Positions 1 through 22,042 are shown, counted from the first letter of the stretch. The stretch: DNA of 64,000 nt from Escherichia coli (GCF_036507355.1 NZ_AP027877.1); one strand, 5' to 3'. Made by a program: numbers and translations. The notes: generated by a model from the sequence alone, not told the origin.

Positions 1-42
1 CCTCGACGAACACCAAAAAATGACCAGCGGTAAATAATTCGC

Positions 43-1776
43 GTGAAACAACAGATACAACTTCGTCGCCGTGAAGTCGATGAAACGGCAGACTTGCCCG
101 CTGAATTGCCTCCCTTGCTGCGCCGTTTATACGCCAGCCGAGGAGTACGCAGTGCGCAAGAACTGGAACGCAGTGTTAAAGGTATGTTGCCCTGGCAGCA
201 ACTGAGCGGCGTCGAAAAGGCCGTTGAGATCCTTTACAACGCTTTTCGCGAAGGAACGCGGATTATTGTGGTCGGTGATTTCGACGCTGACGGTGCCACC
301 AGCACGGCTCTAAGCGTGCTGGCGATGCGCTCGCTTGGTTGCAGCAATATCGACTACCTGGTACCAAACCGTTTCGAAGACGGTTACGGCTTAAGCCCGG
401 AAGTGGTCGATCAGGCCCATGCCCGTGGCGCGCAGTTAATTGTCACGGTGGATAACGGTATTTCCTCCCATGCGGGGGTTGAGCACGCTCGCTCGTTGGG
501 CATCCCGGTTATTGTTACCGATCACCATTTGCCGGGCGACACATTACCCGCAGCGGAAGCGATCATTAACCCTAACTTGCGCGACTGTAATTTCCCGTCG
601 AAATCACTGGCAGGCGTGGGTGTGGCGTTTTATCTGATGCTGGCGCTGCGCACCTTTTTGCGCGATCAGGGCTGGTTTGATGAGCGTAACATCGCAATTC
701 CTAACCTGGCAGAACTGCTGGATCTGGTCGCGCTGGGGACAGTAGCGGACGTCGTGCCGCTGGACGCTAATAATCGCATTCTGACCTGGCAGGGGATGAG
801 TCGCATCCGTGCCGGAAAGTGCCGTCCGGGGATTAAAGCGCTGCTGGAAGTGGCAAACCGTGATGCACAAAAACTCGCCGCCAGCGATTTAGGTTTTGCG
901 CTGGGGCCACGTCTCAATGCTGCCGGGCGACTGGACGATATGTCCGTCGGTGTGGCGCTGTTGTTGTGCGACAACATCGGCGAAGCGCGCGTGCTGGCAA
1001 ATGAACTCGATGCGCTAAACCAGACGCGAAAAGAGATCGAACAAGGAATGCAAATTGAAGCCCTGACCCTGTGCGAGAAACTGGAGCGCAGCCGCGACAC
1101 GCTACCCGGCGGGCTGGCAATGTATCACCCCGAATGGCATCAGGGCGTTGTCGGTATTCTGGCTTCGCGCATCAAAGAGCGTTTTCACCGTCCGGTTATC
1201 GCCTTTGCGCCAGCAGGTGATGGTACGCTGAAAGGTTCAGGTCGCTCCATTCAGGGGCTGCATATGCGTGATGCACTGGAGCGATTAGACACACTCTACC
1301 CTGGCATGATGCTGAAGTTTGGCGGTCATGCGATGGCGGCGGGTTTGTCGCTGGAAGAGGATAAATTCGAACTCTTTCAACAACGGTTTGGCGAACTGGT
1401 TACTGAGTGGCTGGACCCTTCGCTATTGCAAGGCGAAGTGGTGTCAGACGGTCCGTTAAGTCCAGCCGAAATGACCATGGAAGTGGCGCAGCTGCTGCGC
1501 GATGCTGGCCCGTGGGGGCAGATGTTCCCGGAGCCGCTGTTTGACGGTCATTTCCGTCTGCTGCAACAGCGGCTGGTGGGCGAACGTCATTTGAAAGTCA
1601 TGGTCGAACCGGTCGGCGGCGGTCCGCTGCTGGATGGTATTGCTTTTAATGTCGATACCGCCCTCTGGCCGGATAACGGCGTGCGCGAAGTGCAACTGGC
1701 TTACAAGCTCGATATCAACGAGTTTCGCGGCAACCGCAGCCTGCAAATTATCATCGACAATATCTGGCCAATTTAG
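43..1776 (+). CDS. recJ: single-stranded-DNA-specific exonuclease RecJ
   Basis: 577-aa ORF with DHH-family motifs (VGDFDADGATS, DHH); full-length enterobacterial RecJ-like sequence; recJ-prfB-lysS synteny. Confidence 0.95.
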   Translation: MKQQIQLRRREVDETADLPAELPPLLRRLYASRGVRSAQELERSVKGMLPWQQLSGVEKAVEILYNAFREGTRIIVVGDFDADGATSTALSVLAMRSLGCSNIDYLVPNRFEDGYGLSPEVVDQAHARGAQLIVTVDNGISSHAGVEHARSLGIPVIVTDHHLPGDTLPAAEAIINPNLRDCNFPSKSLAGVGVAFYLMLALRTFLRDQGWFDERNIAIPNLAELLDLVALGTVADVVPLDANNRILTWQGMSRIRAGKCRPGIKALLEVANRDAQKLAASDLGFALGPRLNAAGRLDDMSVGVALLLCDNIGEARVLANELDALNQTRKEIEQGMQIEALTLCEKLERSRDTLPGGLAMYHPEWHQGVVGILASRIKERFHRPVIAFAPAGDGTLKGSGRSIQGLHMRDALERLDTLYPGMMLKFGGHAMAAGLSLEEDKFELFQQRFGELVTEWLDPSLLQGEVVSDGPLSPAEMTMEVAQLLRDAGPWGQMFPEPLFDGHFRLLQQRLVGERHLKVMVEPVGGGPLLDGIAFNVDTALWPDNGVREVQLAYKLDINEFRGNRSLQIIIDNIWPI

Positions 1777-1866
1777 CGTCATCTTCTCTATAAAAAAGAG
1801 CGTGGATTGGGTACAATCCCGCTCTTATCACCGCATTTTGACTAGCTCAATAAAAGAAATCAGACC

Positions 1867-2965
1867 ATGTTTGAAATTAATCCGGTAAATAATCGCATTC
1901 AGGACCTCACGGAACGCTCCGACGTTCTTAGGGGGTATCTTTGACTACGACGCCAAGAAAGAGCGTCTGGAAGAAGTAAACGCCGAGCTGGAACAGCCGG
2001 ATGTCTGGAACGAACCCGAACGCGCACAGGCGCTGGGTAAAGAGCGTTCCTCCCTCGAAGCCGTTGTCGACACCCTCGACCAAATGAAACAGGGGCTGGA
2101 AGATGTTTCTGGTCTGCTGGAACTGGCTGTAGAAGCTGACGACGAAGAAACCTTTAACGAAGCCGTTGCTGAACTCGACGCCCTGGAAGAAAAACTGGCG
2201 CAGCTTGAGTTCCGCCGTATGTTCTCTGGCGAATATGACAGCGCCGACTGCTACCTCGATATTCAGGCAGGGTCTGGCGGTACGGAAGCACAGGACTGGG
2301 CGAGCATGCTTGAGCGTATGTATCTGCGCTGGGCAGAATCGCGTGGTTTCAAAACTGAAATCATCGAAGAGTCGGAAGGTGAAGTGGCGGGTATTAAATC
2401 CGTGACTATCAAAATCTCCGGCGATTACGCTTACGGCTGGCTGCGTACAGAAACCGGCGTTCACCGCCTGGTGCGTAAAAGCCCGTTTGACTCCGGCGGT
2501 CGTCGCCACACGTCGTTCAGCTCCGCGTTTGTTTATCCGGAAGTTGATGATGATATTGATATCGAAATCAACCCGGCGGATCTGCGCATTGACGTTTATC
2601 GCGCGTCCGGCGCGGGCGGTCAGCACGTTAACCGTACCGAATCTGCGGTGCGTATTACCCACATCCCGACCGGGATCGTGACCCAGTGCCAGAACGACCG
2701 TTCCCAGCACAAGAACAAAGACCAGGCCATGAAGCAGATGAAAGCGAAGCTTTATGAACTGGAGATGCAGAAGAAAAATGCCGAGAAACAGGCGATGGAA
2801 GATAACAAATCCGACATCGGCTGGGGCAGCCAGATTCGTTCTTATGTCCTTGATGACTCCCGCATTAAAGATCTGCGCACTGGGGTAGAAACCCGCAACA
2901 CGCAGGCCGTGCTGGACGGCAGCCTGGATCAATTTATCGAAGCAAGTTTGAAAGCAGGGTTATGA
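1867..2965 (+). CDS. prfB: peptide chain release factor 2, programmed +1 frameshift
   Basis: ATG at 1867 gives [25 protein letters not shown], then in-frame UGA at 1942-1944 in the context AGGGGGUAUCUUUGAC; +1 frame from 1943 continues to the stop at 2965 with GGQ motif (SGAGGQHVN). Confidence 0.93.
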
Positions 2966-2974
2966 GGAACCAAC

Positions 2975-4492
2975 ATGTCTGAACAACACGCACAGGGCGC
3001 TGACGCGGTAGTCGATCTTAACAATGAACTGAAAACGCGTCGTGAGAAGCTGGCGAACCTGCGCGAGCAGGGGATTGCCTTCCCGAACGATTTCCGTCGC
3101 GATCATACCTCTGACCAATTGCACGCAGAATTCGACGGTAAAGAGAACGAAGAACTGGAAGCGCTGAATATCGAAGTCGCCGTTGCTGGCCGCATGATGA
3201 CCCGCCGTATTATGGGTAAAGCGTCTTTCGTTACCCTGCAGGATGTGGGTGGCCGCATTCAGCTGTACGTTGCCCGTGACGATCTGCCGGAAGGCGTTTA
3301 CAACGAGCAGTTCAAAAAATGGGACCTCGGCGACATCCTCGGCGCGAAAGGTAAACTGTTCAAAACCAAAACCGGCGAACTGTCTATCCACTGTACCGAG
3401 CTGCGTCTGCTGACCAAAGCACTGCGTCCGCTGCCGGATAAATTCCACGGCTTGCAGGATCAGGAAGCGCGCTATCGTCAGCGTTATCTGGATCTCATCT
3501 CTAACGATGAATCCCGTAACACCTTTAAAGTGCGCTCGCAGATCCTCTCTGGTATTCGCCAGTTCATGGTGAACCGCGGCTTTATGGAAGTTGAAACGCC
3601 GATGATGCAGGTGATCCCAGGCGGTGCCGCTGCGCGTCCGTTTATCACCCACCATAACGCGCTGGATCTCGACATGTACCTGCGTATCGCGCCGGAACTG
3701 TACCTCAAGCGTCTGGTGGTCGGTGGCTTCGAGCGTGTATTCGAAATCAACCGTAACTTCCGTAACGAAGGTATCTCCGTACGTCATAACCCAGAGTTCA
3801 CCATGATGGAACTCTACATGGCTTACGCAGATTACAAAGATCTGATCGAGCTGACCGAATCGCTGTTCCGTACTCTGGCACAGGATATTCTCGGTAAGAC
3901 GGAAGTGACCTACGGCGACGTGACGCTGGACTTCGGTAAACCGTTCGAAAAACTGACCATGCGAGAAGCGATCAAGAAATATCGCCCGGAAACCGACATG
4001 GCGGATCTGGATAACTTCGACTCTGCGAAAGCGATTGCTGAATCTATCGGTATCCACGTTGAGAAGAGCTGGGGTCTGGGCCGTATCGTTACCGAGATCT
4101 TCGAAGAAGTGGCAGAAGCACATCTGATTCAGCCGACCTTCATTACTGAATATCCGGCAGAAGTTTCTCCGCTGGCGCGTCGTAACGACATTAACCCGGA
4201 AATCACAGACCGCTTTGAGTTCTTCATTGGTGGTCGTGAAATCGGTAACGGCTTTAGCGAGCTGAATGACGCGGAAGATCAGGCGCAGCGCTTCCTGGAT
4301 CAGGTTGCCGCGAAAGATGCAGGTGACGACGAAGCGATGTTCTACGATGAAGATTACGTTACCGCACTGGAACATGGCTTACCGCCGACAGCAGGTCTGG
4401 GGATTGGCATCGACCGTATGGTAATGCTGTTCACCAACAGCCATACCATCCGCGACGTTATTCTGTTCCCGGCGATGCGTCCGGTGAAATAA
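2975..4492 (+). CDS. lysS: lysine--tRNA ligase
   Basis: 505-aa ORF, class II aaRS; typical LysS N-terminus [33 protein letters not shown]. Confidence 0.95.
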
Positions 4493-4512
4493 GCATTACG
4501 TTATGCTCACAA

Positions 4513-4535
4513 CCCCGGCAAATGTCGGGGTTTTT
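4513..4535 (+). terminator. intrinsic terminator after lysS
   Basis: CCCCGGCAAATGTCGGGG hairpin followed by a T-run, ending directly at the IS1 terminus. Confidence 0.6.
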
Positions 4536-4550
4536 GGTAATGACTCCAAC

Positions 4551-5054
4551 TTATTGATAGTGTTTTATGTTCAGATAATGCCCGATGACTTTGTCATGCA
4601 GCTCCACCGATTTTGAGAACGACAGCGACTTCCGTCCCAGCCGTGCCAGGTGCTGCCTCAGATTCAGGTTATGCCGCTCAATTCGCTGCGTATATCGCTT
4701 GCTGATTACGTGCAGCTTTCCCTTCAGGCGGGATTCATACAGCGGCCAGCCATCCGTCATCCATATCACCACGTCAAAGGGTGACAGCAGGCTCATAAGA
4801 CGCCCCAGCGTCGCCATCGTGCGTTCACCGAATACGTGCGCAACAACCGTCTTCCGGAGCCTGTCATACGCGTAAAACAGCCAGCGCTGGCGCGATTTAG
4901 CCCCGACATAGCCCCACTGTTCGTCCATTTCCGCGCAGACGATGACGTCACTGCCCGGCTGTATGCGCGAGGTTACCGACTGCGGCCTGAGTTTTTTAAG
5001 TGACGTAAAATCGTGTTGAGGCCAACGCCCATAATGCGGGCTGTTGCCCGGCAT
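4551..5054 (-). CDS. insB: IS1 InsB (transposase frame, normally expressed as InsAB by -1 frameshift)
   Basis: 167-aa ORF overlapping the insA 3' end in the -1 frame; canonical IS1 InsB sequence. Confidence 0.9.
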
Positions 5055-5248
5055 CCAACGCCATTCATGGCCATATCAATGATTTTCTGGTGCGTACCGG
5101 GTTGAGAAGCGGTGTAAGTGAACTGCAGTTGCCATGTTTTACGGCAGTGAGAGCAGAGATAGCGCTGATGTCCGGCGGTGCTTTTGCCGTTACGCACCAC
5201 CCCGTCAGTAGCTGAACAGGAGGGACAGCTGATAGAAACAGAAGCCAC
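4973..5248 (-). CDS. insA: IS1 InsA
   Basis: 91-aa [46 protein letters not shown], the canonical IS1 InsA. Confidence 0.95.
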
Positions 5249-5504
5249 TGGAGCACCTCAAAAACACCATCATACACTAAATCAGTAAGTTGGCAGCATC
5301 ACCCGCATCAGGATGGGAAATAGGGTAAAAAAGTAAGGAACTTCGATACCTCTACTACAGTGAATATTTTGCTGATGATACTTCCCTTTGCCAAATGAAA
5401 TTAACCTCTTTCTCTATTACCGCGTTTTTCCAGAAGCAAGAGATTGGGTATCAAGAGGCTGGCTGCTATGATATGGCGTCTTGTTTTTTAAGCGAGGAAA
5501 GATT

Positions 5505-6260
5505 TTGAGTGCGGGACGCCTGAATAAAAAATCTCTGGGTATCGTGATGTTGTTATCGGTTGGACTGCTTTTGGCGGGCTGTTCGGGTAGCAAATCATCC
5601 GATACAGGAACGTATTCCGGCTCCGTTTACACCGTGAAACGGGGGGATACGCTATATCGTATTTCGCGCACCACGGGAACCAGCGTAAAAGAACTGGCGC
5701 GACTGAACGGCATTTCCCCCCCTTACACTATTGAAGTAGGTCAGAAACTAAAACTGGGTGGGGCGAAAAGTAGCAGTAGTACACGTAAATCAACCGCCAA
5801 ATCAACGACTAAAACCGCATCGGTTACACCGTCATCAGCGGTACCGAAATCTTCCTGGCCGCCAGTAGGGCAACGTTGTTGGTTATGGCCAACGACAGGG
5901 AAAGTTATCATGCCGTATTCGACAGCAGATGGCGGCAATAAAGGGATTGATATCTCAGCTCCACGGGGTACACCTATTTACGCCGCGGGTGCAGGAAAGG
6001 TGGTGTATGTGGGCAACCAGCTGCGTGGCTACGGTAATCTCATCATGATTAAACACAGTGAAGATTACATTACGGCTTACGCCCATAATGACACGATGCT
6101 GGTAAATAATGGGCAAAGCGTGAGGGCTGGGCAAAAAATCGCCACCATGGGGAGCACGGATGCGGCATCTGTTCGCCTGCATTTCCAGATTCGTTACCGT
6201 GCAACGGCAATTGATCCGCTACGTTACTTGCCGCCGCAGGGCAGCAAGCCAAAATGCTGA
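5505..6260 (+). CDS. ygeR: LysM/peptidase M23 lipoprotein YgeR
   Basis: Probable TTG start at 5505 preceded by GAGGA (the track ORF starts at an upstream ATG at 5481); lipobox LLAGC, LysM segment (YTVKRGDTLYRISR) and C-terminal M23 domain; located immediately upstream of glyU. Confidence 0.85.
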   Translation: MSAGRLNKKSLGIVMLLSVGLLLAGCSGSKSSDTGTYSGSVYTVKRGDTLYRISRTTGTSVKELARLNGISPPYTIEVGQKLKLGGAKSSSSTRKSTAKSTTKTASVTPSSAVPKSSWPPVGQRCWLWPTTGKVIMPYSTADGGNKGIDISAPRGTPIYAAGAGKVVYVGNQLRGYGNLIMIKHSEDYITAYAHNDTMLVNNGQSVRAGQKIATMGSTDAASVRLHFQIRYRATAIDPLRYLPPQGSKPKC

Positions 6261-6338
6261 TGGCGAATTAATCAGCAGTCAGCAGCGCGGCACTTGCTAA
6301 GGAGAGCGTAAGGTTTATAATGCCTTACGCATCTCGAA

Positions 6339-6412
6339 GCGGGCGTAGTTCAATGGTAGAACGAGAGCTTCCCAAGCTCTATACGAGGGTTCGATTCCCT
6401 TCGCCCGCTCCA
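6339..6412 (+). tRNA. glyU: tRNA-Gly (anticodon CCC)
   Basis: 74-nt sequence GCGGGCGTAGTTCAATGGTAGAACGAGAGCTTCCCAAGCTCTATACGAGGGTTCGATTCCCTTCGCCCGCTCCA with cloverleaf and CCC anticodon. Confidence 0.97.
6390..6412 (+). repeat. attL core: 3' end of glyU (23 bp), direct repeat of 10585-10607
   Basis: TTCGATTCCCTTCGCCCGCTCCA occurs identically at 6390-6412 and 10585-10607. Confidence 0.85.
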
Positions 6413-6546
6413 TGACCTTTCTTAAAGTACTCCAACCTACTGAATCCTAAGGGATACGGCTTTAAGCCTTCCGCTAGTTTTACTCACTGTAACCAACACT
6501 GTAACTAAATTTGTTGAAATAGTGAGCAGACTTAAGATCTCAGTAC

Positions 6547-8178
6547 ATGCTCAACTCAAAAACCTATCTTTATCAGCGCAATGGCGTCTTTTATATCCGC
6601 CTCAGGATGAAGTCCACAGATCGCCTGACCGTTTCACATCCTTCCCATAGCCGTTATAAAATAGCGTCAGTATCACTACGGACTAAGGATAGACGTACAG
6701 CTATGGCTTACTCACGGCAAATCAAGGCAGCACTTAGGGCAATCCATGCAGACAGACCCAACGCCTCCTATGAGGAAATGAGGGAACACCTGAGGGACAT
6801 CGCAGAGTGGGAGTTGTCTACAGGTCGTTCAGACCTCTTCGAGCCAGATATGAGAGATCTATACCGTGACCAGTATGGGGAAGTGGGAGAGAATCTTGTC
6901 CATGCTCTGGCAAGCGAGCCACTGACTATTGACCAGCATCGCTATATTAATGAGGCTCTTAATGTACTCAAGGCCTGCATGAAGCGCATTGAAGCGGGAG
7001 ATAGCCAGCCACTTATAGATTATATAGATGGATTTGATGCTGCTGCTGGGGCTAATGGCCAAGCCTCTGCAACTCTATCTGTTAGTGCTCCCCAAAAAAC
7101 AAGCATTACTGAAGGCAAACACTGCGTAACCGTTGCTTCTCTCTTTGAGCAGTACGAGCAGGAAAACGCCCAGAACTGGAAGCCAGCAACATTACGAGAA
7201 AACAAAGCTTCTCATGCTGCGTTAATCGAAGTTTTTGATTATCTGGGCCTCAATGCTGACGCCAATGTGTTAGCTCGTGCGGATATGCTTAGGGTTCGGG
7301 ATATCCTCCAGCAATTGCCGAAGAATCGTAAGCAGCGTTTCAAAGATGTTCCGTTGGTTGACCTGCTAGGTCGTGAGGATAAAACCGATTGTCTGGATAT
7401 TGTTACCATCAATAATAAATATCTCATTAAGATGGCGGCTGTTTTCAAGTGGGCCGTGCGTAATGACCTGATTAAAAAGAATATGACAGAAGGGCTAGAG
7501 CTTAAGGTTCCCCAGCGTAAAGCCTCTGAGGCGCGTAATGCTTTCTCTACGGAGCAGGTAGGACAACTACTGGCTGCCGCCCAAGTTTACTCACAGAGAC
7601 CTTCTGGTAAGCCGTATCATTATTATGTTACCGCCTTGGCTGCTATCACTGGGGCGAGACTCAATGAAATAGCCCAACTACAGGTCAAAGACGTCAGGAC
7701 CACTGAGGCGGGAACCGTTTATATTCATATCAATGAAGACGATAGTAGTCTACCCGGTAAGAGCATCAAGAACGCTCATAGTGACCGCTGTGTGCCTCTG
7801 GTCGATGGGGCCTATGGTTTTATATTGGCTGACTTTATGAGGTTGGTTGAGACCCGTAGAGGCGCTGATGGTGATGACGCTATGGTGTTCGATGGTCTTC
7901 GCCTCATGAAGAACGGTTACGGTGAGCAGGTGAGTAAATGGTTTAATCGGACGTTGTTGCCTAAAGTCCTCGCAGACCGTAGCGGCTTAGCGTTTCACTC
8001 GTTTAGACATACAGTTGCGACCCAGTTAAAACAACATGGGGTCGAGTTGGCGTATGCACAGGCGATCATGGGGCATAGTTCAGGGTCTATTACTTACGAC
8101 CGTTATGCTAAAGAGGTTGAGGTTGATAGACTGGTCAATGTGATGGCTGATGTTTATAAGGAGGTTGTGGCCCCTTAA
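6547..8178 (+). CDS. tyrosine-type integrase (543 aa, extended N-terminal region)
   Basis: C-terminal catalytic motifs ARLNEI (Arg), HSFRHTVAT (H-x-x-R), GHSSGSITYDRYAK (Tyr); first gene after the tRNA att core. Confidence 0.85.
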   Translation: MLNSKTYLYQRNGVFYIRLRMKSTDRLTVSHPSHSRYKIASVSLRTKDRRTAMAYSRQIKAALRAIHADRPNASYEEMREHLRDIAEWELSTGRSDLFEPDMRDLYRDQYGEVGENLVHALASEPLTIDQHRYINEALNVLKACMKRIEAGDSQPLIDYIDGFDAAAGANGQASATLSVSAPQKTSITEGKHCVTVASLFEQYEQENAQNWKPATLRENKASHAALIEVFDYLGLNADANVLARADMLRVRDILQQLPKNRKQRFKDVPLVDLLGREDKTDCLDIVTINNKYLIKMAAVFKWAVRNDLIKKNMTEGLELKVPQRKASEARNAFSTEQVGQLLAAAQVYSQRPSGKPYHYYVTALAAITGARLNEIAQLQVKDVRTTEAGTVYIHINEDDSSLPGKSIKNAHSDRCVPLVDGAYGFILADFMRLVETRRGADGDDAMVFDGLRLMKNGYGEQVSKWFNRTLLPKVLADRSGLAFHSFRHTVATQLKQHGVELAYAQAIMGHSSGSITYDRYAKEVEVDRLVNVMADVYKEVVAP

Positions 8179-8179
8179 G

Positions 8180-8234
8180 GATGACCATAGGCGATGACCA
8201 TAGGCGATGACCATAGGCGATGACACTTGCTACT
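8180..8234 (+). repeat. tandem 13-bp iterons (GATGACCATAGGC x3 plus a variant GATGACACTTGCTACT)
   Basis: Three perfect head-to-tail copies starting one base after the integrase stop; the variant unit recurs at about 8391-8410. Confidence 0.8.
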
Positions 8235-8293
8235 ATTCCTATGGTCCCCTTTGTGGTCCTATGTGGTCCTGTGTGACCCTTTGTGTGGTCATG
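8235..8293 (+). repeat. cluster of TGGTCC/TGTGGTC short repeats
   Basis: ATTCCTATGGTCCCCTTTGTGGTCCTATGTGGTCCTGTGTGACCCTTTGTGTGGTCATG: about five degenerate copies of one motif. Confidence 0.7.
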
Positions 8294-8330
8294 TTTTGAC
8301 TCATAGTTTTCACTACTTGTCAAGCATATT

Positions 8331-8353
8331 TAATACGACTCACTATAGGGAGA
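8331..8353 (+). promoter_or_regulatory. bacteriophage T7 RNA polymerase promoter (exact 23-bp class III consensus)
   Basis: TAATACGACTCACTATAGGGAGA read directly, predicted +1 G at 8348; followed by a TCTCTCTCTGTCTCTCTC tract. Confidence 0.85.
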
Positions 8354-8584
8354 AGGGACACAAAAAGTTTTCTCTCTCTGTCTCTCTCTATGATGACACT
8401 TGCTACTACTTCAGGTAGCTTTAACTCTAACCGTAACTTATCGCATCCTTTCAGGGGCGGGATGACCAATTACAGACACCAAGCGTTCTACTTAAAATGA
8501 ATGCTTCCTGTGTGCTCTGGGTCAGTCGATAAGTGAATAGCCTTAGACATCATATTAATTATGGTCTCTAACCCCTACAGGGGC

Positions 8585-8729
8585 TTAACTTTAAGTATTA
8601 ACTTATAGTCTACTTAAAGACACAATTAAAGATTAACTTAAAGTATTAAATTATAGATTAATTAAAGACCAATTAAAGAGTAACTTTAAGTATTAACTTA
8701 TAGTCTACTTAAAGACACAATTAAAGATT
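8585..8729 (+). repeat. AT-rich iteron array with two ~48-bp direct repeats (TTAAAGA/TTAAAGAC units)
   Basis: AACTTTAAGTATTAACTTATAGTCTACTTAAAGACACAATTAAAGATT at about 8587-8634 and 8682-8729; preceded by CCCCTACAGGGG at about 8570. Confidence 0.8.
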
Positions 8730-8920
8730 GACTCTAAGGGAATACCTTAAGAGGTGATGATATTCATAATAATCAATCACCAAACCTATAGGTCTCCTCA
8801 AGGCATTACCCAGAAGCTAACTGTATGGCCCTGTATGGTCCTGTACGCCATTCTTTAGGATGCCATGTAGTTTCGTATGGCCTGATGCCTAGCGTGGCTC
8901 AGAGACCCTCCCAGTAGTAA

Positions 8921-8945
8921 ATCAATACGACTTACTAATAGGAGA
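8921..8945 (+). promoter_or_regulatory. degenerate T7-like promoter (putative)
   Basis: CAATACGACTTACTAATAGGAGACA: 18 of 23 positions match the T7 consensus, same orientation, about 230 bp upstream of the 9158 ORF. Confidence 0.45.
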
Positions 8946-9157
8946 CACACTCCGAACCACTCACCACGTGTCTCTCAAAGTTCCACCTCTCGCGCTTCAC
9001 CATACAGTAGCTCCGCACAGCTACGACACAATCATTCATTCAATCTCAAAGTCATTCTGTTTGCATCCTGTTGTCCTGCTGGTCTCCCTTCGCTTGGGGA
9101 CTTTGAGTGGGCCAGTAGGGGGCGGTTTAGTGTGCATATTTAAAAGGTAACCAAGCA

Positions 9158-9721
9158 ATGAACAATAAACATAAACATGCAGGTCATATTATCACTATTG
9201 AAGGCCACAGCTTTAAGTCTAATGAGTCTGGCATGTGGAATCTTACAGAAATATGGAAAATCCTCGGATTACCTAACAATAAGCTACCCTCTCAGTGGCG
9301 CGGCAAGGTAACAAAGAGGCTCACCGACATGCAAAAAATGCACGTCGAGAAGATTGGTATTGAAAGCATAACCTACGCAGACAAACAGGCTACCCTCAAG
9401 TATGCAGGATGGGTCTCTGAAGATTTCGAGGACATGGTCTATGCAGCCTTTGAGGCTATCCTTGAGATGCCTGAAGTTGCCACGGTCGTTGCTAATAAGA
9501 TGGTCGAACTTGGCTATCACGCTGAAGCTGAGCTATTGGAACGTCATAAGGACGACTATAGAGAAGCTATGCAGACCCTTAAAAAGATTGGTAAACGTGT
9601 TGACGGCAGGAAGCCTGAGCGCATCTACAAGGCCGTACTTAACGGTAATCTGACGAAATTTCAAGGGTTATCCATGATTTCTCGCAGCAGTGTCTGGTAC
9701 GCCCGAACAGTGAATCTATGA
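9158..9721 (+). CDS. hypothetical protein, possible KilA-N-like N-terminal domain
   Basis: 187-aa ORF with AAGGTAA upstream; N-terminal IITIEGHSFKSNESGMWNLTEIWKILG...AGWVSEDFEDMVYAAF is reminiscent of KilA-N/APSES-type domains (tentative, from recall). Confidence 0.5.
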   Translation: MNNKHKHAGHIITIEGHSFKSNESGMWNLTEIWKILGLPNNKLPSQWRGKVTKRLTDMQKMHVEKIGIESITYADKQATLKYAGWVSEDFEDMVYAAFEAILEMPEVATVVANKMVELGYHAEAELLERHKDDYREAMQTLKKIGKRVDGRKPERIYKAVLNGNLTKFQGLSMISRSSVWYARTVNL

Positions 9722-9844
9722 TGGCTATCGATCACGATAGATGCCAGCGATCAATTTCAGGTTACCGATCGAAACAAACGATCAGCACGATGGTTGCAAT
9801 CGGATATCATATTGACACTTGTCTGACATCCTGAAGGTATCAAT

Positions 9845-10318
9845 ATGTTTGGGCTTTTTAAGAAAAAGGCAAAAGCGGAAAGGTGTTATGATGTAACACG
9901 CATTCAATACGAGCTGGTTGTAATGTCATCTAAGCTGATAAAAAAACAGACCGATATGTTCAAAGTAATAAAAGGGGAGCGAGAGGAGGCTTTAGGAGAC
10001 CCTTTATTATCAGCAGGGTATATAACGCCATGGGTCATTGGATATTGCACTGGTCTCCTGGATGCAGTGACTCAGACGGAGGCTAACAGGATGGCATTTA
10101 CATCAGAAATGCTTGGGCTTCTTTTTGCTGCAGTTTTCGGTGATGATAAGTCTCTTGAGGCCATGGGAACTTATATAGCCTGTAACGAAGCCTCCTCACC
10201 AGACCATGGATTTCATGTTACGTATGAGCTTTATATGTCTGGTCTAGCGAAAGCGTTTAATGAGGTATGTGAGGATAAACCTGCGATAGGACTTCTGAAC
10301 TATTTAATGCAGGATTGA
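9845..10318 (+). CDS. hypothetical protein (157 aa)
   Basis: ORF with no recognisable motifs; TTGACA at about 9810 upstream; last ORF before attR. Confidence 0.45.
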   Translation: MFGLFKKKAKAERCYDVTRIQYELVVMSSKLIKKQTDMFKVIKGEREEALGDPLLSAGYITPWVIGYCTGLLDAVTQTEANRMAFTSEMLGLLFAAVFGDDKSLEAMGTYIACNEASSPDHGFHVTYELYMSGLAKAFNEVCEDKPAIGLLNYLMQD

Positions 10319-10584
10319 AAATTTCCCACAAAAATCTCAGTGCCTATCTAACAGTAATAACCCTGCAACATTCCCCCGTATACCTCCAGAAGTTATCCAG
10401 AAGCCGAAGTAGGTATCCTGTCATGTATTTGAATCATCAAAGTTGTTCGTTCTATTCCTCTTTAGGGAATATTACAGCCCTACAGCCTTGACCAGAGATC
10501 ACTTGATGTGTAACCATAACTGTAACCAAAAGGATTCATCATCCTTTAAGAAACAATTGGTTAGTGAGTGATTGTCTTCGATAC

Positions 10585-10607
10585 TTCGATTCCCTTCGCC
10601 CGCTCCA
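10585..10607 (+). repeat. attR of the 4.2-kb element (also proximal att of the next islet)
   Basis: 23-bp copy of the glyU 3' end; flanking sequence diverges from the tRNA. Confidence 0.85.
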
Positions 10608-10771
10608 AACTCAAGTCTCCTGAAGTCTACCAAACTCAATTTTTCCTTGATAAATCAGCAGTTATAGCTTTCTATTAGTCTATTGAACTCAATTGTACTC
10701 CCCCAGGGTCAAGCTCAATGTGGGGGTATGGATGGGGGTATAATTGTACCCCCTGCTGAGAGGTACCCCCA

Positions 10772-11998
10772 ATGAAGCTGACTGCTCGTCAGGTTGAAAC
10801 TGCGAAACCCAAAGAGAAGCCCTACAAACTGGCCGATGGTGGTGGGCTTTACCTGCTGGTTAATCCCAACGGTAAAAGATACTGGCGTCTCAAATACCGT
10901 TCGTTAGGTAAAGAGAAGCTGCTCGCTATTGGCGTTTATCCCGATGTTTCTTTAGCTGAGGCCCGAAGTAAGCGTGAGGATGCTAAAAGAACATTAGCGG
11001 CTGGCAACGATCCCTCTCTTGAACGAAAAATTGAGAAACTTAGTCGTCAACAAGACGCTGAAAACTCGTTTGAGGCTATCACACGGGAGTGGTATCAGCG
11101 TCGCTATGACCGCTGGTCTGTCTCCTACCGCGAAGAAATGCTGAGAACCTTTGAGAAAGATGTATTTCCTTATATCGGTCACAGGCCAATCAAAGATATC
11201 AAGCCGATGGAGTTGCTTGCAGTTCTTTCAAAGATAGAAGCACGAGGGGCAACAGAGAAAGTCCGCAAGGTTCGTCAGCGTTGTGGAGAGGTCTGGAAGT
11301 ATGCCGTTGTGACTGGGAGGGCCGAGTACAATCCAGCACCTGATCTAGCCAGCGCCGTGAGTCCTCATGAGAAAGAGCACTATGCTTTTTTAACCCAGGA
11401 TGAATTGCCTGAGTTTCTTCGGACTCTGAACGCCTATGCCGGTAGTGTGCTTGTTAAGATTGCGATGCAATTGCTCATTTTAACAGGAGTAAGGCCAGGG
11501 GAGTTGAGGCAAGCGGAGTGGCAGGAGTTTGATTTTGAGAAAAAGGTTTGGAATGTACCAGCGGAACGTATGAAAATGCGCCGCCCTCATCTTGTTCCAT
11601 TATCAAGCCAGGCAATTGACCTGCTTAATCAACTTAAACCCATAACGGGAGCAGGAGCGTTATTATTCCCAGGACGTAATAATCCTAAGAAACCGATGAG
11701 CGATATGGCATTGACTGTGTTGGTCAGGCGTATCGGCTATGCCGGGCGCGTTACAGGGCATGGATTCCGCCACACGATGAGTACCATTTTGCATGAGCAG
11801 GGATTCAACTCGGCCTGGATTGAGTTACAGCTGGCTCACGTCGATAAGAACTCAATTCGTGGGACGTATAACCATGCTCAATATTTGGAAGGTCGGCGGG
11901 AGATGATGCAGTGGTATGGAGATTTCATCGGTCAAGCAGGCAAATCCGGATCATCGCTAGCTTATGCAGCTATTAGCTTGACTGCTGAATTAGAGTGA
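10772..11998 (+). CDS. P4-type tyrosine integrase
   Basis: 408-aa ORF; N-terminus MKLTARQVETAKPKEKPYKLADGGGLYLLVNPNGKRYWRLKY typical of P4-family integrases; HGFRHT and Y-containing C-terminal box; sits 165 bp after the tRNA-derived repeat. Confidence 0.9.
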   Translation: MKLTARQVETAKPKEKPYKLADGGGLYLLVNPNGKRYWRLKYRSLGKEKLLAIGVYPDVSLAEARSKREDAKRTLAAGNDPSLERKIEKLSRQQDAENSFEAITREWYQRRYDRWSVSYREEMLRTFEKDVFPYIGHRPIKDIKPMELLAVLSKIEARGATEKVRKVRQRCGEVWKYAVVTGRAEYNPAPDLASAVSPHEKEHYAFLTQDELPEFLRTLNAYAGSVLVKIAMQLLILTGVRPGELRQAEWQEFDFEKKVWNVPAERMKMRRPHLVPLSSQAIDLLNQLKPITGAGALLFPGRNNPKKPMSDMALTVLVRRIGYAGRVTGHGFRHTMSTILHEQGFNSAWIELQLAHVDKNSIRGTYNHAQYLEGRREMMQWYGDFIGQAGKSGSSLAYAAISLTAELE

Positions 11999-12008
11999 GA
12001 AGGGGCAA

Positions 12009-12056
12009 GTTGAGCCTCTTCGCTGAGAAGAGGCTCAACGTGAACCTATTTTTTTG
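12009..12056 (+). terminator. intrinsic terminator after integrase
   Basis: GTTGAGCCTCTTC-GCTG-AGAAGAGGCTCAAC hairpin followed by a T7 run. Confidence 0.7.
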
Positions 12057-12153
12057 GGAGTTAATACTTTTTGCAATTTTTTTTTTCGTGCCGTTGGATG
12101 TAAAGATCTGTGGGGGTTAGGGAAGAAAATCATGCTATGTTAGTCTTTGAGGA

Positions 12154-13131
12154 GTGAGTCAAAATGTTATAACTTTTTCAAAGAGGCGTTACATCGTGAA
12201 AGTCGTTTTTAATGTTAATGGTAAAAAAGTTCCGCTCAAATCTCTGCAATATATAAGTAAAGCAAATCAACTCGAAGTTATGCGGAATTGGTTTTTTGAG
12301 AATTTTGAAGATCCCGCGAACTCTTGCCCGTATGAATCCCGTGAAGGCGGGTATGCTTACATTTATGGGGGCCCATACGAAGCAAGTGAAGAGTTGCAAG
12401 CGATGTTTGAAGGACACGTGAAATTTGATTATATCCAAGAATTAGTCAATGAATTACAAGAACAGTGCTATGAATGGTCTGGTAATTCAAATAATATTAA
12501 TGATTGGTACGATGAAGACTTGTATGATGCTGTTACATCTTCTGAACATCCTTTTTCTAAGTTCGTTGAAAGCATTGATGGAATAAAATTGCTGTCTAAA
12601 GGCGAATTTAAAGATAAACAAAAAGATCATCTGCTTAGCATCCTATATATTAATGTCATTACAGCCCTGGAAACACTTTATGTTGAGTTATTTATTAACT
12701 CTATAGATAAAAACGACTCATATCTTGCTGACTTTATAGAAAAAGGTAAGACGGAATTTAAGGTAAATAAAGGAATATTGGCTTTGCCATTCAAAGGAGA
12801 AACTATTGAAAACATGAGGGCGCAATTAATTAAGGTAATTAAAGAGCATTTGATTAGTGCAAGTTGGCATAGTACAAACAAAGTTGTAGGACGTTATAAA
12901 GCTACATTTGATATAAAAGTACATAAAGAGTGGCCAATAGATGTGATCGAAATAGCAACTCAAAAGCGTAATCATTTAGTCCATCGTGGCGGGAAAGATA
13001 AAGAAGGTAATTCGGTAGTGATTACTGAACAGGATTTAGAAATGTTGCTGGATCACGCACAATCTCTTGGAGAAAAATTGTTTGATAGCCTTGAGGTGGC
13101 ATTACAGAAAAAAGATGAGAATGAATTTTGA
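12154..13131 (+). CDS. hypothetical protein with C-terminal HEPN-like R-x4-H motif (putative abortive-infection protein)
   Basis: 325-aa ORF; C-terminal KRNHLVHRGG fits the HEPN R-x(4-6)-H signature; AT-rich gene inside an integrase islet. Confidence 0.5.
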   Translation: MSQNVITFSKRRYIVKVVFNVNGKKVPLKSLQYISKANQLEVMRNWFFENFEDPANSCPYESREGGYAYIYGGPYEASEELQAMFEGHVKFDYIQELVNELQEQCYEWSGNSNNINDWYDEDLYDAVTSSEHPFSKFVESIDGIKLLSKGEFKDKQKDHLLSILYINVITALETLYVELFINSIDKNDSYLADFIEKGKTEFKVNKGILALPFKGETIENMRAQLIKVIKEHLISASWHSTNKVVGRYKATFDIKVHKEWPIDVIEIATQKRNHLVHRGGKDKEGNSVVITEQDLEMLLDHAQSLGEKLFDSLEVALQKKDENEF

Positions 13132-13182
13132 GTCTCGGGGTAGGTTGATAGTGCTACCGATAACGAGCAAGCAAATGATACT

Positions 13183-13202
13183 CGGCAGGCAGTGCCTGCC
13201 GG
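13183..13202. terminator. bidirectional hairpin between convergent genes
   Basis: CCGGCAGGCA-G-TGCCTGCCGG perfect inverted repeat between the 13131 and 13207 stop codons. Confidence 0.55.
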
Positions 13203-13206
13203 AGGA

Positions 13207-14910
13207 TTACTTTTTACTTCCAAATTGAATGCCGAGAAGTTTATTCTCTGCTTTATCGCCACGTAGAGTAAGAACAATTTTTGATTTCAGTTCTAACATT
13301 TCGATTTCAGATAAAGTTGTTTCCATAGCATTAAAGTTTTCAGTGTTTAAAGATGCTATATATTGCTTTCCGCTTCGTTTTAATGACTGATTGACAAATG
13401 AGAACCATCTTGCGCGAACACCTGGATCTATATCAGCAAAAAGACGGTTATCATGCCATAGCATATCCATGGCATGGTTTTCACCACATGTAAATACTAA
13501 CCAGTCAAAGCATAATATCCTAGCATCATTGATCCCATCCGAATCATCACCCTCGATTTGGATGCTTAGATCATAACGAATTTTGTTGTCACCAGTATTA
13601 ACATCCAAAACTATTCCTGCTGGTACCCTTGGGTACATTATTTCTGCGAGCTCAGCAAAAATTTTATCGTATTCTGAAAGAGGATTTGTAGAAGCATAGT
13701 TTACCGCTAATCTGTCTTGTTCAACTTTTCGTTCTCTTAGATTTTGAGCTTTCTGTTGAAGGTTAATAGAAAAATTTAAATAATCATGTAACCTTTCTTT
13801 TTCTTCTTTAAATTCAGCTAGTTGTCTAGCTATGACTGCGTATTCATCAAATGCTTTCTTGCCTTGCAGGGATTCCAAATATGAATCACGTAATGCTGAA
13901 ATATCCTTAATGTCAATTTTAAGAGATTCAATTTCTAACAAAAGTTTTACTTTATCATTTTCAAGTCTTTTCTTTCTGTTAAAAGATAATGATTTGTGAA
14001 AATTTTCAACTGACTCAAAATGGGCCAATGTTTCTGGCTTGAAAATCTCTTGTAAGCCATTGTACAGTTCAAGAAGCTCTTCTCTTGAAATGTCAGGGTG
14101 TTCTAATAAAGTTTTTTCTATATTATTTACTTTAAATTCAGCTATATTTTTGTTTTTTTCAACTTCTCGTAATTTTATAGTTAAACTGTTTGTTTCATTC
14201 TCAATAGCTCTGTATTGCTCGTGAACTTGAAATGCATTCAGTTCATCCTGCAGTCTTGGGATCTCTCTTTCTAGCCACTCATAGCGTACTTTAGGTTGAG
14301 AGCCTGCTCTAAACATGTCTTTTAGAATATCATCGTCTTGCCAATTTTTTAGCGATTGACTTACTTTATCCAGCTCTTGCTTATTATTTCTTTTAGATAA
14401 TATTAAATTATGATCTATACCGAGAAGAAATGCGGTACGAAGCAATGCTTCAAAGTCTTGCTCCTTTTTTGTCCTAGTTGGACTGATGCAGTCATCTCTG
14501 GTATATCGCGAAAAACGCTTAAATAAAGATCTGAATGATAAATACGGAATGTTATTCTCAAGATTAAATATTCCTATTTTATCTAATAAATCTTTAAATG
14601 CTTTTAAAGATATTGTTTTGTCATTTAATAATAATTTTTTTCCATTGCCCGTTCTAGATATTAAGTACTCAACTCCATTATGAGAAAAAAGTAAAGAGAA
14701 CCACCAATCTGGAACTGCTGAAGTTAATTTTTTATCAGCATTAGCTCCTAAACAATGTTGAATGAGACCGAGAATAAGTGTCTTACCGACTCCGTTACTA
14801 CTGCCTTCTTTTTCTTTAGAGCTATCACCAATGATCAACGTTAGTCCTGTATCATTGAAATGCACTGGATGAAAAGTTGGCTGATCGCAAGTTAAGCGAA
14901 TTAACTTCAT
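13207..14910 (-). CDS. SMC/ABC-type P-loop ATPase with long coiled-coil region (putative anti-phage ATPase)
   Basis: 567-aa ORF; Walker A GSSNGVGKT near the N-terminus; long K/E-rich heptad-like middle; start codon abuts the stop of the upstream 101-aa gene. Confidence 0.65.
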   Translation of the reverse strand: MKLIRLTCDQPTFHPVHFNDTGLTLIIGDSSKEKEGSSNGVGKTLILGLIQHCLGANADKKLTSAVPDWWFSLLFSHNGVEYLISRTGNGKKLLLNDKTISLKAFKDLLDKIGIFNLENNIPYLSFRSLFKRFSRYTRDDCISPTRTKKEQDFEALLRTAFLLGIDHNLILSKRNNKQELDKVSQSLKNWQDDDILKDMFRAGSQPKVRYEWLEREIPRLQDELNAFQVHEQYRAIENETNSLTIKLREVEKNKNIAEFKVNNIEKTLLEHPDISREELLELYNGLQEIFKPETLAHFESVENFHKSLSFNRKKRLENDKVKLLLEIESLKIDIKDISALRDSYLESLQGKKAFDEYAVIARQLAEFKEEKERLHDYLNFSINLQQKAQNLRERKVEQDRLAVNYASTNPLSEYDKIFAELAEIMYPRVPAGIVLDVNTGDNKIRYDLSIQIEGDDSDGINDARILCFDWLVFTCGENHAMDMLWHDNRLFADIDPGVRARWFSFVNQSLKRSGKQYIASLNTENFNAMETTLSEIEMLELKSKIVLTLRGDKAENKLLGIQFGSKK

Positions 14911-15216
14911 TTAACTTTCCTTATTTTTTAATTTGTCATAATTGCAACAGATTGGCATTATTCTGTTTTCATTATCTAGCGTTATTTGTTTGATGCAAAA
15001 AAGAATGTCTACGGCAAGTATAAATTGTGTAAAAGAGGGCGTGATTATCGTTGATTTATTTTTCCGCTCTATTTTTGTCCATAGTTCTTCTATGGATACC
15101 GGTCCATCAATTAACGAACGGATGTATCCTGCAATCGCAATTAGGGAGTTACTAAACCTAACATGCTTATGTGGCAGAAGCATTGCTTGGATGTTCATAA
15201 GCATCACATGTCTCAA
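14911..15216 (-). CDS. small hypothetical protein coupled to the ATPase
   Basis: 101-aa ORF whose stop (14911-14913) is immediately followed by the ATPase ATG (14908-14910), suggesting translational coupling. Confidence 0.5.
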   Translation of the reverse strand: MRHVMLMNIQAMLLPHKHVRFSNSLIAIAGYIRSLIDGPVSIEELWTKIERKNKSTIITPSFTQFILAVDILFCIKQITLDNENRIMPICCNYDKLKNKES

Positions 15217-15390
15217 AATATTTAGCTAAAATTAACTCTGCAGCAAATCGATAACTCGCGACCGCACTTGTGGGAACTTGCGGGGGAAGGAGTTTATCTA
15301 TCATCCAAGTATATCTTAAATCTGCATAATTGTGGTTATCTTCAGTTATCGCCAATTTACTTTTTGCATAAGTATCTCTAACTTCTTGAG

Positions 15391-16173
15391 CTATAGTTTG
15401 TTCAAGACCACAAGACCATTATCAACAGAATCTAAAAATTCATTTATCAAATATAGTTGATAGCTAAAAGATTCCAGCCTGCTTTTTATTGGTTTTGTAA
15501 TACCATTTATTTTTATTTTATCTTCGAAGTCCGGGGCTGTTTCACTTAAAAAATTCATGGGTGAAGAAGATTTTTGTGCTAAAAAAGTCAATACTTCACC
15601 AACAGCTCGAGTATCTGTAAAGTCTAAATTAACCTCAGGAATGAAACCTACAATATCTTGCTTTTCACCCTCGGATAATGACATAAACTTTTGAAGGAGC
15701 TCCATCCCACCCATTGCACCTGCGTGATTAAGACTTTTACTGATTGCAAGTGTATTTAATGAAAGTCCAACAGGTGCTGGAATACCCTTGAAATAATCAT
15801 TCATTACAAAAGTATATTTTGATACTTTCCCCCATTTGGCGACTAATTTATCAAAGTCGCCAATCGATTTATTAACAGCTTCTAGCTCTTTGGTTTGATT
15901 TGAAGGTTTAGGTCCATAAACTTGGAAGTAATGAGCCTCATGAGCAATCCACCCATCATTCCCGCCATCTCCCCAGTTTCCCCAAGGGGAAACAGCTTGA
16001 AAGCCAGGAGTCGCGTATTGCATAACCTTCGAAAAAAGCGCCTGAAAACTGTCTCCCATACATTCATGTACTTTTAACCGAAAGAACTGTCTGTAGAGGT
16101 AATCTTGCTGTGTCGAACTCATTTTCCTCTCATCCATGATGAACACTTTTGATGATAATATCCTCTCATTCAT
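15391..16173 (-). CDS. hypothetical protein (260 aa), first gene of the ATPase operon, candidate effector
   Basis: ORF with WGNWGDGGNDGWIAHEAHYF segment; no confident family assignment. Confidence 0.5.
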   Translation of the reverse strand: MNERILSSKVFIMDERKMSSTQQDYLYRQFFRLKVHECMGDSFQALFSKVMQYATPGFQAVSPWGNWGDGGNDGWIAHEAHYFQVYGPKPSNQTKELEAVNKSIGDFDKLVAKWGKVSKYTFVMNDYFKGIPAPVGLSLNTLAISKSLNHAGAMGGMELLQKFMSLSEGEKQDIVGFIPEVNLDFTDTRAVGEVLTFLAQKSSSPMNFLSETAPDFEDKIKINGITKPIKSRLESFSYQLYLINEFLDSVDNGLVVLNKL

Positions 16174-16332
16174 TGTTGTAAACCTATGATTAGCAAAATT
16201 GGAGATGCTTTCACTTTAGAGTTGGTATCTAAAGGTTATAAATTATCAAAACAGGTTGTATAGATATCAAATTGAATACGATTTGACATATATGTTAATC
16301 TGATTAGTATCAGAGAAAAACAGGAGTCCTTA

Positions 16333-16683
16333 ATGTCGCTTATCCCCCTACAACTCTTCAAAAACCTCTCCGATGAAACCCGTTTGGGCATCGTGTTGCT
16401 GCTTAGAGAGATGGGAGAGCTGTGCGTGTGCGACCTTTGCACTGCGCTAGAACAGTCGCAGCCCAAGATCTCCCGTCATCTGGCAATGCTCCGGGAAAGT
16501 GGTCTATTGCTGGATCGTAAACAGGGCAAGTGGGTTCACTACCGCTTATCCCCGCATATTCCTTCCTGGGCCGCTCAGGTGATTGAGCAGGCCTGGTTAA
16601 GCCAACAGGACGATGTGCAGGCCATCGCCCGTAAGCTGGCATCAGCAAACTGCTCTGGTAGCGGTAAGGCTGTTTGTATCTAA
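16333..16683 (+). CDS. arsR: arsenical resistance operon repressor ArsR
   Basis: 116-aa ArsR/SmtB-family protein with metal-binding ELCVCDLC and HTH. Confidence 0.9.
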   Translation: MSLIPLQLFKNLSDETRLGIVLLLREMGELCVCDLCTALEQSQPKISRHLAMLRESGLLLDRKQGKWVHYRLSPHIPSWAAQVIEQAWLSQQDDVQAIARKLASANCSGSGKAVCI

Positions 16684-16730
16684 AAAATTTGCCTGAACAT
16701 ATATGATTTTTCGAATGCGAGGTGTTCAGA

Positions 16731-17093: not shown

Positions 17094-17110
17094 GTATGTC
17101 AGGAGGACAT

Positions 17111-18862: not shown

Positions 18863-18909
18863 TTTTTTGGCATATACAGGGCGGCAAAGTCGCCCTGTCA
18901 GGAGGTTTT

Positions 18910-20199: not shown

Positions 20200-20211
20200 T
20201 GAGATACTGAT

Positions 20212-20637: not shown

Positions 20638-20643
20638 ATATAA

Positions 20644-20661
20644 AGGGGGCTGATGCCCCCT
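20644..20661. terminator. hairpin between convergent arsC and acetyltransferase genes
   Basis: AGGGGGC-TGAT-GCCCCCT stem-loop. Confidence 0.5.
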
Positions 20662-20671
20662 TATTCCTGCC

Positions 20672-22034: not shown

Positions 22035-22042
22035 ACCAGCCC

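Follow-up and report, generated by a model that had tools for sequence, protein, structure and literature searches.

Element 1 (E1), a 4195-bp integrative element in the 3' end of the glyU tRNA gene of Escherichia coli, is probably a minimal satellite of T7-like virulent phages, working mainly through cis-acting signals copied from them. It occupies positions 6413-10607 (+ strand) of a 64,000-nucleotide stretch of an E. coli genome (GCF_036507355.1, NZ_AP027877.1), which is called the window here. The phage T7 cis-signals inside E1 are the main feature of the region. The initial annotation, which described two tandem integrative elements at glyU, is accurate in all details of the locus and missed these signals. 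A satellite is the simplest account of E1 because it covers several observations at once: promoters that switch from element to element to match different phages, a promoter followed by AT-rich DNA, both edges of a phage terminal repeat placed on either side of attP, and, in relatives, a gene for a shell protein. It also appears likely that E1 belongs to a previously undescribed family of 3.6-6.5-kb elements in Enterobacterales that parasitise T7-like phages.

E1 has three credible genes, all on the + strand. The gene int1 (6547-8178) encodes a tyrosine recombinase of 543 aa whose N-terminal extension is long; its residues 334-522 match Pfam PF00589 (E 5e-18), and it also matches the PHROG 1 integrase. 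Open reading frame (ORF) 187 (9158-9721) is KilA-N-like (Pfam KilA-N, E 0.003; PHROG 129, E 8e-10), and its relatives in RefSeq carry a KilA-N annotation. ORF157 (9845-10318) is all-helical with hydrophobic helices; it has no detectable relatives of known function, and a fold search gave no meaningful match. It occupies the slot that holds the scaffold-like and HK97-fold genes in relatives.

Phage promoters and an origin-like region

E1 carries two T7-type promoters, both on the + strand and both directed at the two cargo genes. A weight matrix built from 17 natural T7 promoters, applied with a cut-off of 12 bits, found only these two sites in the whole 64 kb. The first, TAATACGACTCACTATAGGGAGA (8331-8353, +1 at 8348, 40.4 bits), is a perfect class III promoter for T7 RNA polymerase, identical at 23/23 positions to T7 phi6.5, phi9, phi10, phi13, phi17, and phiOR. 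It is located in the 980-bp gap between int1 and ORF187, which contains no credible gene. The second, CAATACGACTTACTAATAGGAGA (8923-8945, +1 near 8940), is weaker at 24.5 bits and lies upstream of ORF187 and ORF157; it is identical in four E. coli variants. All seven E. coli variants have T7-type promoters, one to three each and always on the + strand, and the perfect site is retained in every one of the seven. Across 15 loci the 9-mer CACTATAGG occurs 33 times on the + strand in the 1.6 kb past int, compared to zero times on both strands of the other 435 kb.

The specificity region of the promoters varies among elements, and the variants match genuine phage promoters. The promoter type of the Proteus and Kluyvera elements is identical at 27/27 positions to an annotated promoter of Vibrio phage ICP3, and a second promoter type in Citrobacter matches promoters of Kayfunavirus phages (EcoDS1, Dev2). 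The element of Klebsiella pneumoniae ATCC 13883 contains AATTAGGGCACACTATAGGGAGA, one base different from K11 phiOL, as well as an exact T7 promoter. In total, this locus has four promoters packed into 600 bp (7036-7615), two of the K11 consensus, one that is exactly T7, and one further variant, and this mixture suggests a response to several T7-like genera. Two further relatives, found in IMG/VR as uncultivated viral genomes derived from isolate genomes, have three identical perfect T7 promoters about 120 bp apart. Their att core is TTCGATTCCCGCTGCCCGCTCCA, which differs from that of E1, and they are therefore presumably integrated in another tRNA gene.

The RNA predicted to start at the perfect promoter (8348-8600) folds better than 200 of 200 shuffled sequences (z -2.8); a role as primer RNA or as non-coding RNA is conceivable. 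The leader past the second promoter folds no better than its shuffles.

The most AT-rich stretch of E1 (8581-8744, + strand, 75-85% AT) lies some 250 bp beyond the first promoter and has 47-bp repeats containing CTTAAAG motifs. An AT-rich region is found downstream of the first promoter in most family members. The T7 origin has this layout, a T7 promoter and then AT-rich DNA. Positions 8618-8717 align locally with T7 408-498, just past phiOL, with a score of 49 against 22.6 +/- 3.0 for shuffles, although the aligned DNA is of low complexity. Because of this low complexity, and because a database-wide blastn search was not significant, the assignment of this candidate as a T7-type origin is suggestive only.

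Signals resembling the ends of phage genomes

Near its right end E1 has a pac-like site, termed pac-left (10315-10400, + strand), that is homologous to the T7-group site at which the unique right end passes into the terminal repeat. The sequence is ..CCCACAAAAATCTCAGTGCCTA|TCTAACAGT.., with the boundary at 10346|10347. Positions 10319-10355 match T7 39750-39786 at 31 of 37 positions; the phage reads CTA|TCTCACAGT and the element CTA|TCTAACAGT. Over -32 to +9 around T7 39778 the identity is 34/41, with a score of 47 (shuffles, 21 +/- 2). The resemblance to T3 is visible in other members: the Klebsiella site scores 60, and the Proteus site is identical at 83 of 112 positions from -41 to +71. Pac-left is present in 14/14 complete elements scanned, 220-280 bp before attR. 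When the pac-left regions were compared by unbiased blastn with 50,697 phage records, only T7-like phages were found, and all placeable matches fell at the right terminal repeat edge (best E 5e-6 for Klebsiella and 6e-4 for E. coli).

The second signal resembles a concatemer junction (CJ) and lies within int1. It reads CTCTGCAACTCTA|TCTGTTAGT (7064-7086, + strand, boundary 7077|7078, CTA|TCTGTT). E1 has a single ATCTGTT, the one in int1, and CTATCTGTTA is common to CJ and T7 157-166. The + strand of T7 also has ATCTGTT once, at the right edge of the terminal repeat; this site is the class II pause signal required in concatemer processing. In Klebsiella-type members CJ is CCTCTGTGTCCCTATCTGTTAGT, compared to CTCTCTGTGTCCCTATCTGTTACAG in T7, CTATGTGTCCCTATCTGTTAGCC in T3, and TCTCTGTGTCCCTATCTGTTGG in K11, and 19-20 nt are identical to these phages. 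CJ is at a fixed position in 14/14 complete elements scanned, 580-675 bp past attL, and its reading frame is the same in 12 elements. The rare leucine codon CTA within it is kept in 11 of the 12. No CJ motif was seen in C. braakii or Kluyvera. Selection at the DNA level was not separated from selection at the protein level because the linker aligns poorly in a synonymous-codon test.

In an excised circle or a concatemer the order on the + strand is pac-left, the attP core, the int promoter and the 5' part of int, CJ, the rest of int, the promoter or promoters, the AT-rich region, and the cargo. The order of pac-left, attP, CJ, promoter, and AT-rich DNA corresponds to the order at the ends of the T7 genome. 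Pac-left and CJ are in the same orientation and 926 bp apart in E. coli, and 785-944 bp apart across the family. In integrated E1 the two lie at opposite ends, and only an excised circle or a concatemer unites them. Judged by these homologs of T7, T3, and K11 sites, E1 appears to bear the helper packaging signals by which phage satellites are recognized. A junction split into pac-left, attP, and CJ would be a simple switch that couples packaging to excision.

Relatives in Enterobacterales and their cargo

Homologs of int1 with 64-85% identity are found in 16 species of Enterobacterales. A tRNA-Gly(CCC) gene is directly upstream of int in all ten loci in which a tRNA was detected. The elements of the family are 3.6-6.5 kb long, and tRNA 3'-end repeats are present at the borders wherever both ends are in the retrieved DNA. 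Members of 6.2-6.5 kb add four genes: a DUF4145 gene straight after int, and genes for a small protein, a DUF6971 coiled-coil protein, and a protein of 326-402 aa. Among the products of the larger relatives are a shell protein with the HK97 fold, 375 aa long in the 6.4-kb element of ATCC 13883, and a scaffold-like protein. No relative of the HK97-fold protein was found in the 50,697 phage records or in PHROGs. E1 of the window is without all four added genes; ORF157 stands in their place, and the slot after int is filled by repeats and a promoter.

The DUF4145 gene of the relatives is PD-T7-4, also known as RAZR (PADLOC, E 8e-99). This DUF4145 zinc-finger HEPN gene directly follows int in the elements of ATCC 13883 (L012) and E. 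coli 23S01245-7 (L041) and in locus L008, and it is located upstream of the phage promoters. RAZR is described as a HEPN RNase activated by the portal rings of T7 and T3, with proven anti-T7 abortive infection (PMC13017515), and homologs of PD-T7-4 are described as frequently overlapping an integrase gene (PMC9519451). The text of these two papers, searched by term, describes only the gene; natural T7 promoters, a role as satellite, and the element around the gene do not come up. The E1 family resembles the published loci in that this defence gene follows the family's integrase, whereas E1 of the window lacks RAZR.

Integration at glyU and order of arrival

E1 is a tyrosine-integrase element in the 3' end of glyU: its integrase gene is beside an intact tRNA gene, its borders are tRNA-derived repeats, and a precise empty site exists. 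The tRNA-Gly(CCC) gene at 6339-6412 (+ strand; ARAGORN; Rfam tRNA, 71.6 bits) is the only tRNA in the window, and an Rfam scan of 6200-12200 gave nothing else. Its 3'-terminal 23 nt, TTCGATTCCCTTCGCCCGCTCCA (6390-6412), form the attL core. As the initial annotation had reported, an exact second copy is present at 10585-10607 (+ strand). By junction comparison this copy is the attR core of E1 and at the same time the attL core of a second element, E2. Elsewhere in the window no copy of the core was found, whether 3 or 6 mismatches were allowed (0 in 100 shuffles). Both integrase genes are located where they had been placed: int1 begins at 6547, 135 bp past the tRNA, and the 408-aa ORF of a P4-type integrase begins at 10772, 165 bp past the repeat (NCBIfam PRK09692, 307 bits). 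The possibility that the copy at 10585 belongs to a longer, degraded tRNA pseudogene was ruled out, because the sequence 5' of the 23 bp (..GTGATTGTCTTCGATAC) has no similarity to the body of the tRNA.

Comparison with glyU in other E. coli genomes, which had been proposed as a check, shows that E1 is a discrete indel. In K-12 the site is empty and reads tRNA|ATTTATCTTCGCCG. Strains LR-71-1 and SBF22 have E1 without E2, and the 23-bp repeat is followed by exactly the K-12 flank; these junctions define the 4195 bp of E1. Strains D72 and NCTC10973 are E1-positive as well. Strains L26 and 23S01245-7 have E2 directly at glyU with no 4.2-kb E1 in between. Since other strains hold either element alone and the K-12 site is empty, both E1 and E2 are discrete site-specific insertions. 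The cargo region of E1 is found in about 90 of 5426 complete E. coli genomes, 32 of them with at least 80% coverage, and E1 copies of unrelated E. coli strains are 99.6% identical. The array of the window, E1 and then E2, occurs in none of the E1-matching complete E. coli genomes.

The initial annotation had proposed successive integrations into one attB, with the proximal element the more recent arrival. Two site-specific insertions, with strains that have either one alone, agree with the first part of this proposal. The sequence of arrival is a different matter: a later arrival of E1 is possible and is not established. The same array results if E1 enters the tRNA-side core of a resident E2 or if E2 enters the attR of a resident E1, and the reverse order is found in 23S01245-7 (record positions 16279-43056), where glyU is followed by a complete E2, a RAZR-carrying relative of E1, and the GH15/ETT2 flank. 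The order of arrival therefore cannot be read from position. The attR of E2 in 23S01245-7 is TTCTAATCCCTTCGCCCGCTCCA, with two mismatches to the tRNA core, so the Int2 crossover falls within the 3' 16-17 bp of the core. In strain 81EVA glyU and E1 are separated by a prophage that has an integrase of its own. The glyU core is used by at least three unrelated elements, and arrays arise in either order. Int1 and Int2 are unrelated apart from the catalytic motif, and the tandem of E1 and E2 reflects unrelated integrases sharing one core. Klebsiella ATCC 13883 was considered as a second case of the same tandem and rejected; about 50 bp past its attR resemble the left end of E2, but no Int2 homolog follows.

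Proposed life cycle and alternative explanations

We infer the following steps of induction, replication, excision, packaging, and re-integration. Integrated E1 would be inert because the two halves of the junction are at opposite ends. When a T7-like phage infects, its RNA polymerase would fire the E1 promoters, and ORF187 and ORF157 would be expressed; in relatives the same firing would produce the scaffold-like protein and the HK97-fold shell protein. The phage RNA polymerase would also prime replication at the AT-rich region, with use of the phage replisome. Excision by Int would link pac-left, through the attP core and the 5' part of int, to CJ, giving a 926-bp equivalent of the terminal repeat. 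The phage terminase could then process and package concatemers, with a predicted unit of 4195 + 926 = 5121 bp. In a new cell the host RNA polymerase would transcribe int from the leading end, and Int would carry out integration at glyU. E1 of the window would be a reduced variant wholly dependent on helper capsids, since it has no shell, scaffold, or RAZR genes.

Several observations weigh against a satellite. The second promoter, at 24.5 bits, is below the lowest natural T7 promoter (26.5). The similarity to the T7 origin involves the low-complexity, AT-rich DNA discussed above. CJ is coding, in a fixed frame that specifies the peptide SLSV, and conservation at the protein level is possible. 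Searches of Pfam, PHROG, and NCBIfam turned up no gene for a capsid, scaffold, terminase, or primase in E1 of the window, and no excisionase gene was recognisable there. A unit of 5.1 kb is far under the T7 headful. T7 rapidly degrades the host chromosome, and there is no sign here of an escape by E1. Searches for the attP junction gave no match in IMG/VR or in the metagenome contigs of JGI; no excised, circular, concatemeric, or encapsidated form was found, and E1 DNA was not found in the 50,697 phage records. Two stand-alone Logan contigs were considered as free forms and rejected as integrated copies broken at repeats; for the 4.5-kb contig this was judged by gene layout only, while the other is 6.5 kb long. 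Finally, the RAZR of relatives aborts T7 infection, which fits defence equally well.

Defence is the basis of the most serious alternative. E1 could be a defence islet that is not transferred by phage, in which the T7-type promoters are an infection sensor that switches on ORF187 and ORF157, as well as the cargo of relatives; these products would abort the infection or hinder it, and the integrase would move the islet by other means. The promoters do aim at the cargo genes, ORF157 has hydrophobic helices and no assignable function, and no packaged form was found in IMG/VR, the JGI metagenome contigs, or the phage records. The relatives with RAZR/PD-T7-4 directly after int carry what is described as a proven anti-T7 RNase (PMC13017515), and the overlap of its homologs with integrase genes is described as common (PMC9519451). 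However, RAZR is upstream of the phage promoters and so is not under their control. A sensor also leaves unexplained why homologs of both terminal-repeat boundaries are found throughout the family, in the right order and orientation across attP, and it does not account for the promoter followed by AT-rich DNA or for the presence in larger relatives of HK97-fold and scaffold-like genes. On balance an islet of this kind seems unlikely, though it deserves more weight than the explanations that follow.

A decayed temperate T7-like prophage would account for the order of pac-left, terminal repeat, CJ, promoter, and AT-rich DNA, which is as at T7 genome ends; int, the terminal-repeat region, some promoters, and the capsid gene of relatives would be leftovers of deletion. 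Temperate T7-like phages with integrases do exist. LUZ100 is described as one, and cyanophages are further examples. Decay is nevertheless improbable given that at least 16 species share the compact architecture of 3.6-6.5 kb, in which the ORFs are intact and the att repeats usually so, and given the 99.6% identity of copies in unrelated E. coli strains. Other T7 gene fragments are absent, the promoter and pac matches being the only ones to T7; the HK97-fold protein has no relative among the phage records or PHROGs; and single elements hold promoters of several phage genera. The plain reading of the initial annotation, an ordinary small tRNA islet whose T7-like sequences have no function, agrees with the integrase, the att repeats, and the indel behaviour, all typical of tRNA islands. 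It is very hard to reconcile with the 23/23 promoter, the switching to cognate promoters between hosts, the 33-to-0 enrichment of the 9-mer, and the pac-left and CJ homologies, which are far beyond chance. Chance as the source of the T7-like signals of E1 is excluded.

Comparison with known mobile elements

A satellite role for E1 can be compared with several known systems. The closest natural parallel is PICMI of Vibrionaceae, islands of about 6 kb next to fis with an integrase and a core of int, alpA, and prim that use virulent helper phages (PMC10803314). Very small size, an integrase, dependence on virulent phages, and defence cargo are features of PICMI (PMC10803314), and the same are proposed here for E1. 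PICMI are packaged as concatemers without capsid-remodelling genes (PMC10803314), and the 4.2-kb E1 of the window would need the same solution. E1 differs in being located in glyU rather than beside fis and in having neither alpA nor prim; it appears instead to copy the promoters, origin layout, and genome-end signals of its helper. PICI elements are defined by an alpA or stl regulator, a primase, terS or capsid redirection, and a size of 10-15 kb, while E1 has three ORFs in 4.2 kb and no such matches. The cf-PICI elements are larger than 10 kb, have a full head and packaging module, and use temperate helper phages. The relatives of E1 have only shell and scaffold-like proteins, and E1 of the window has neither; the capsid, portal, protease, connector, and terminase small subunit that characterize cf-PICI as a set are found in neither E1 nor its relatives.

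Chung and Hinkle (J Mol Biol) reportedly showed in 1990 that engineered plasmids with a T7 origin and a concatemer junction are packaged by T7 as transducing concatemers. The three cis requirements of these plasmids, a T7 promoter/origin, the terminal-repeat region, and the right-end pac sequence, are the same as those proposed for E1. The plasmids are laboratory constructs, whereas E1 occurs naturally in the chromosome and has an integrase; attP splits its junction, which is complete only after excision. P4-like satellites resemble the neighbouring E2, which has a P4-type integrase at a tRNA gene and defence and resistance cargo. They differ in that psu, delta, sid, and alpha are not in the annotation of a nearly identical island, and Int1 of E1 is unrelated beyond the catalytic motif.

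A search of open-access papers and bioRxiv found no description of islands bearing T7 promoters, T7 satellites, or a natural parasite of T7. There is about an even chance that these elements are the first satellites of T7-like virulent coliphages, with no regulator, primase, or terminase of their own, with a junction split by attP, and with an HK97-fold mini-capsid and an anti-helper RNase added in larger relatives. T7 is the textbook example of a virulent phage and is widely used in biotechnology and phage therapy. If E1 is a satellite, then induction, replication, and packaging purely by copied cis-signals would make its strategy the most minimal among known satellites, and lytic T7-like phages would provide an added route for horizontal transfer of chromosomal islands. 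RAZR/PD-T7-4 would gain a mobile-element context, that of conflict between satellite and helper. The elements may also have practical consequences, as the roughly 1.7% of complete E. coli genomes that carry them and Klebsiella strains like ATCC 13883 could contaminate or blunt therapeutic lysates of T7-like phages.

Other features of E1, E2, and the rest of the window

Two copies of TGTAACC are found near each end of E1 (6488-6509 and 10509-10530, + strand, direct-repeat family D7). They are probably arm sites of the integrase, and both pairs are conserved in relatives. Three exact 13-bp tandem repeats, GATGACCATAGGC (8180-8224, + strand, family D3), come directly behind the stop codon of int. 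Repeats of the TGTGGTCC type (family D2, + strand), which have a period of 10 bp, are located at 8239-8282 and again at 8821-8844. Together these blocks (8180-8282 and 8821-8844) are iteron-like. A hairpin, GTTCTATTCC-N5/6-GGGAAT (10449-10475, + strand), lies about 135 bp 5' of the attR core; most of the family members compared have it, but C. braakii and Proteus do not. A scan of E1 for sigma-70 promoters and terminators gave nothing above background.

E2 (10608-22584, + strand) is a truncated island with a P4-type integrase. It is 99.86% identical over 11,977 bp to the island of 23S01245-7, from which its gene names are taken. The integrase gene int2 (10772-11998, + strand) matches PRK09692 with an E-value of 2e-91, and its 307 bits do not reach the curated cutoff of 434. 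The annotation of 23S01245-7 places ABC-three-component defence genes at about 13207-16173 on the minus strand and arsRDABC at 16333-20637. Remnants of a second ars cluster follow, ending in an arsH without its first ~51 codons (profile positions 1-51 are missing). The satellite genes psu, delta, sid, and alpha are absent from the RefSeq annotation of the 99.86%-identical island, although no hidden Markov model search was aimed at them. No third copy of the core that could be the attR of E2 was found in the window at up to 6 mismatches, and only 23S01245-7 has an attR of E2. With no attR and an end cut by an insertion sequence, the window's E2 is a remnant fixed in place.

The insertion sequence belongs to the IS3 family (22585-23815, - strand; NCBIfam transpos_IS3, E 5e-101) and truncates both E2 and the ETT2 island. 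It joins the truncated arsH to a truncated ygeH of ETT2 (23813-24790, by match breakpoints and the annotation of other strains), and ETT2 has lost its glyU-proximal half and E2 its distal ~9 kb. On the other side of glyU, positions 1-5400 match recJ-prfB-lysS-idi, joined in two to three pieces to the xdhA/actS side of other strains. From this pattern the xdh-uacT block, normally between idi and actS, seems to be largely absent. Within 23813-31285 the genes ygeG and yqeK/J/I/H of the region remain, with yqeG at 30056-31285.

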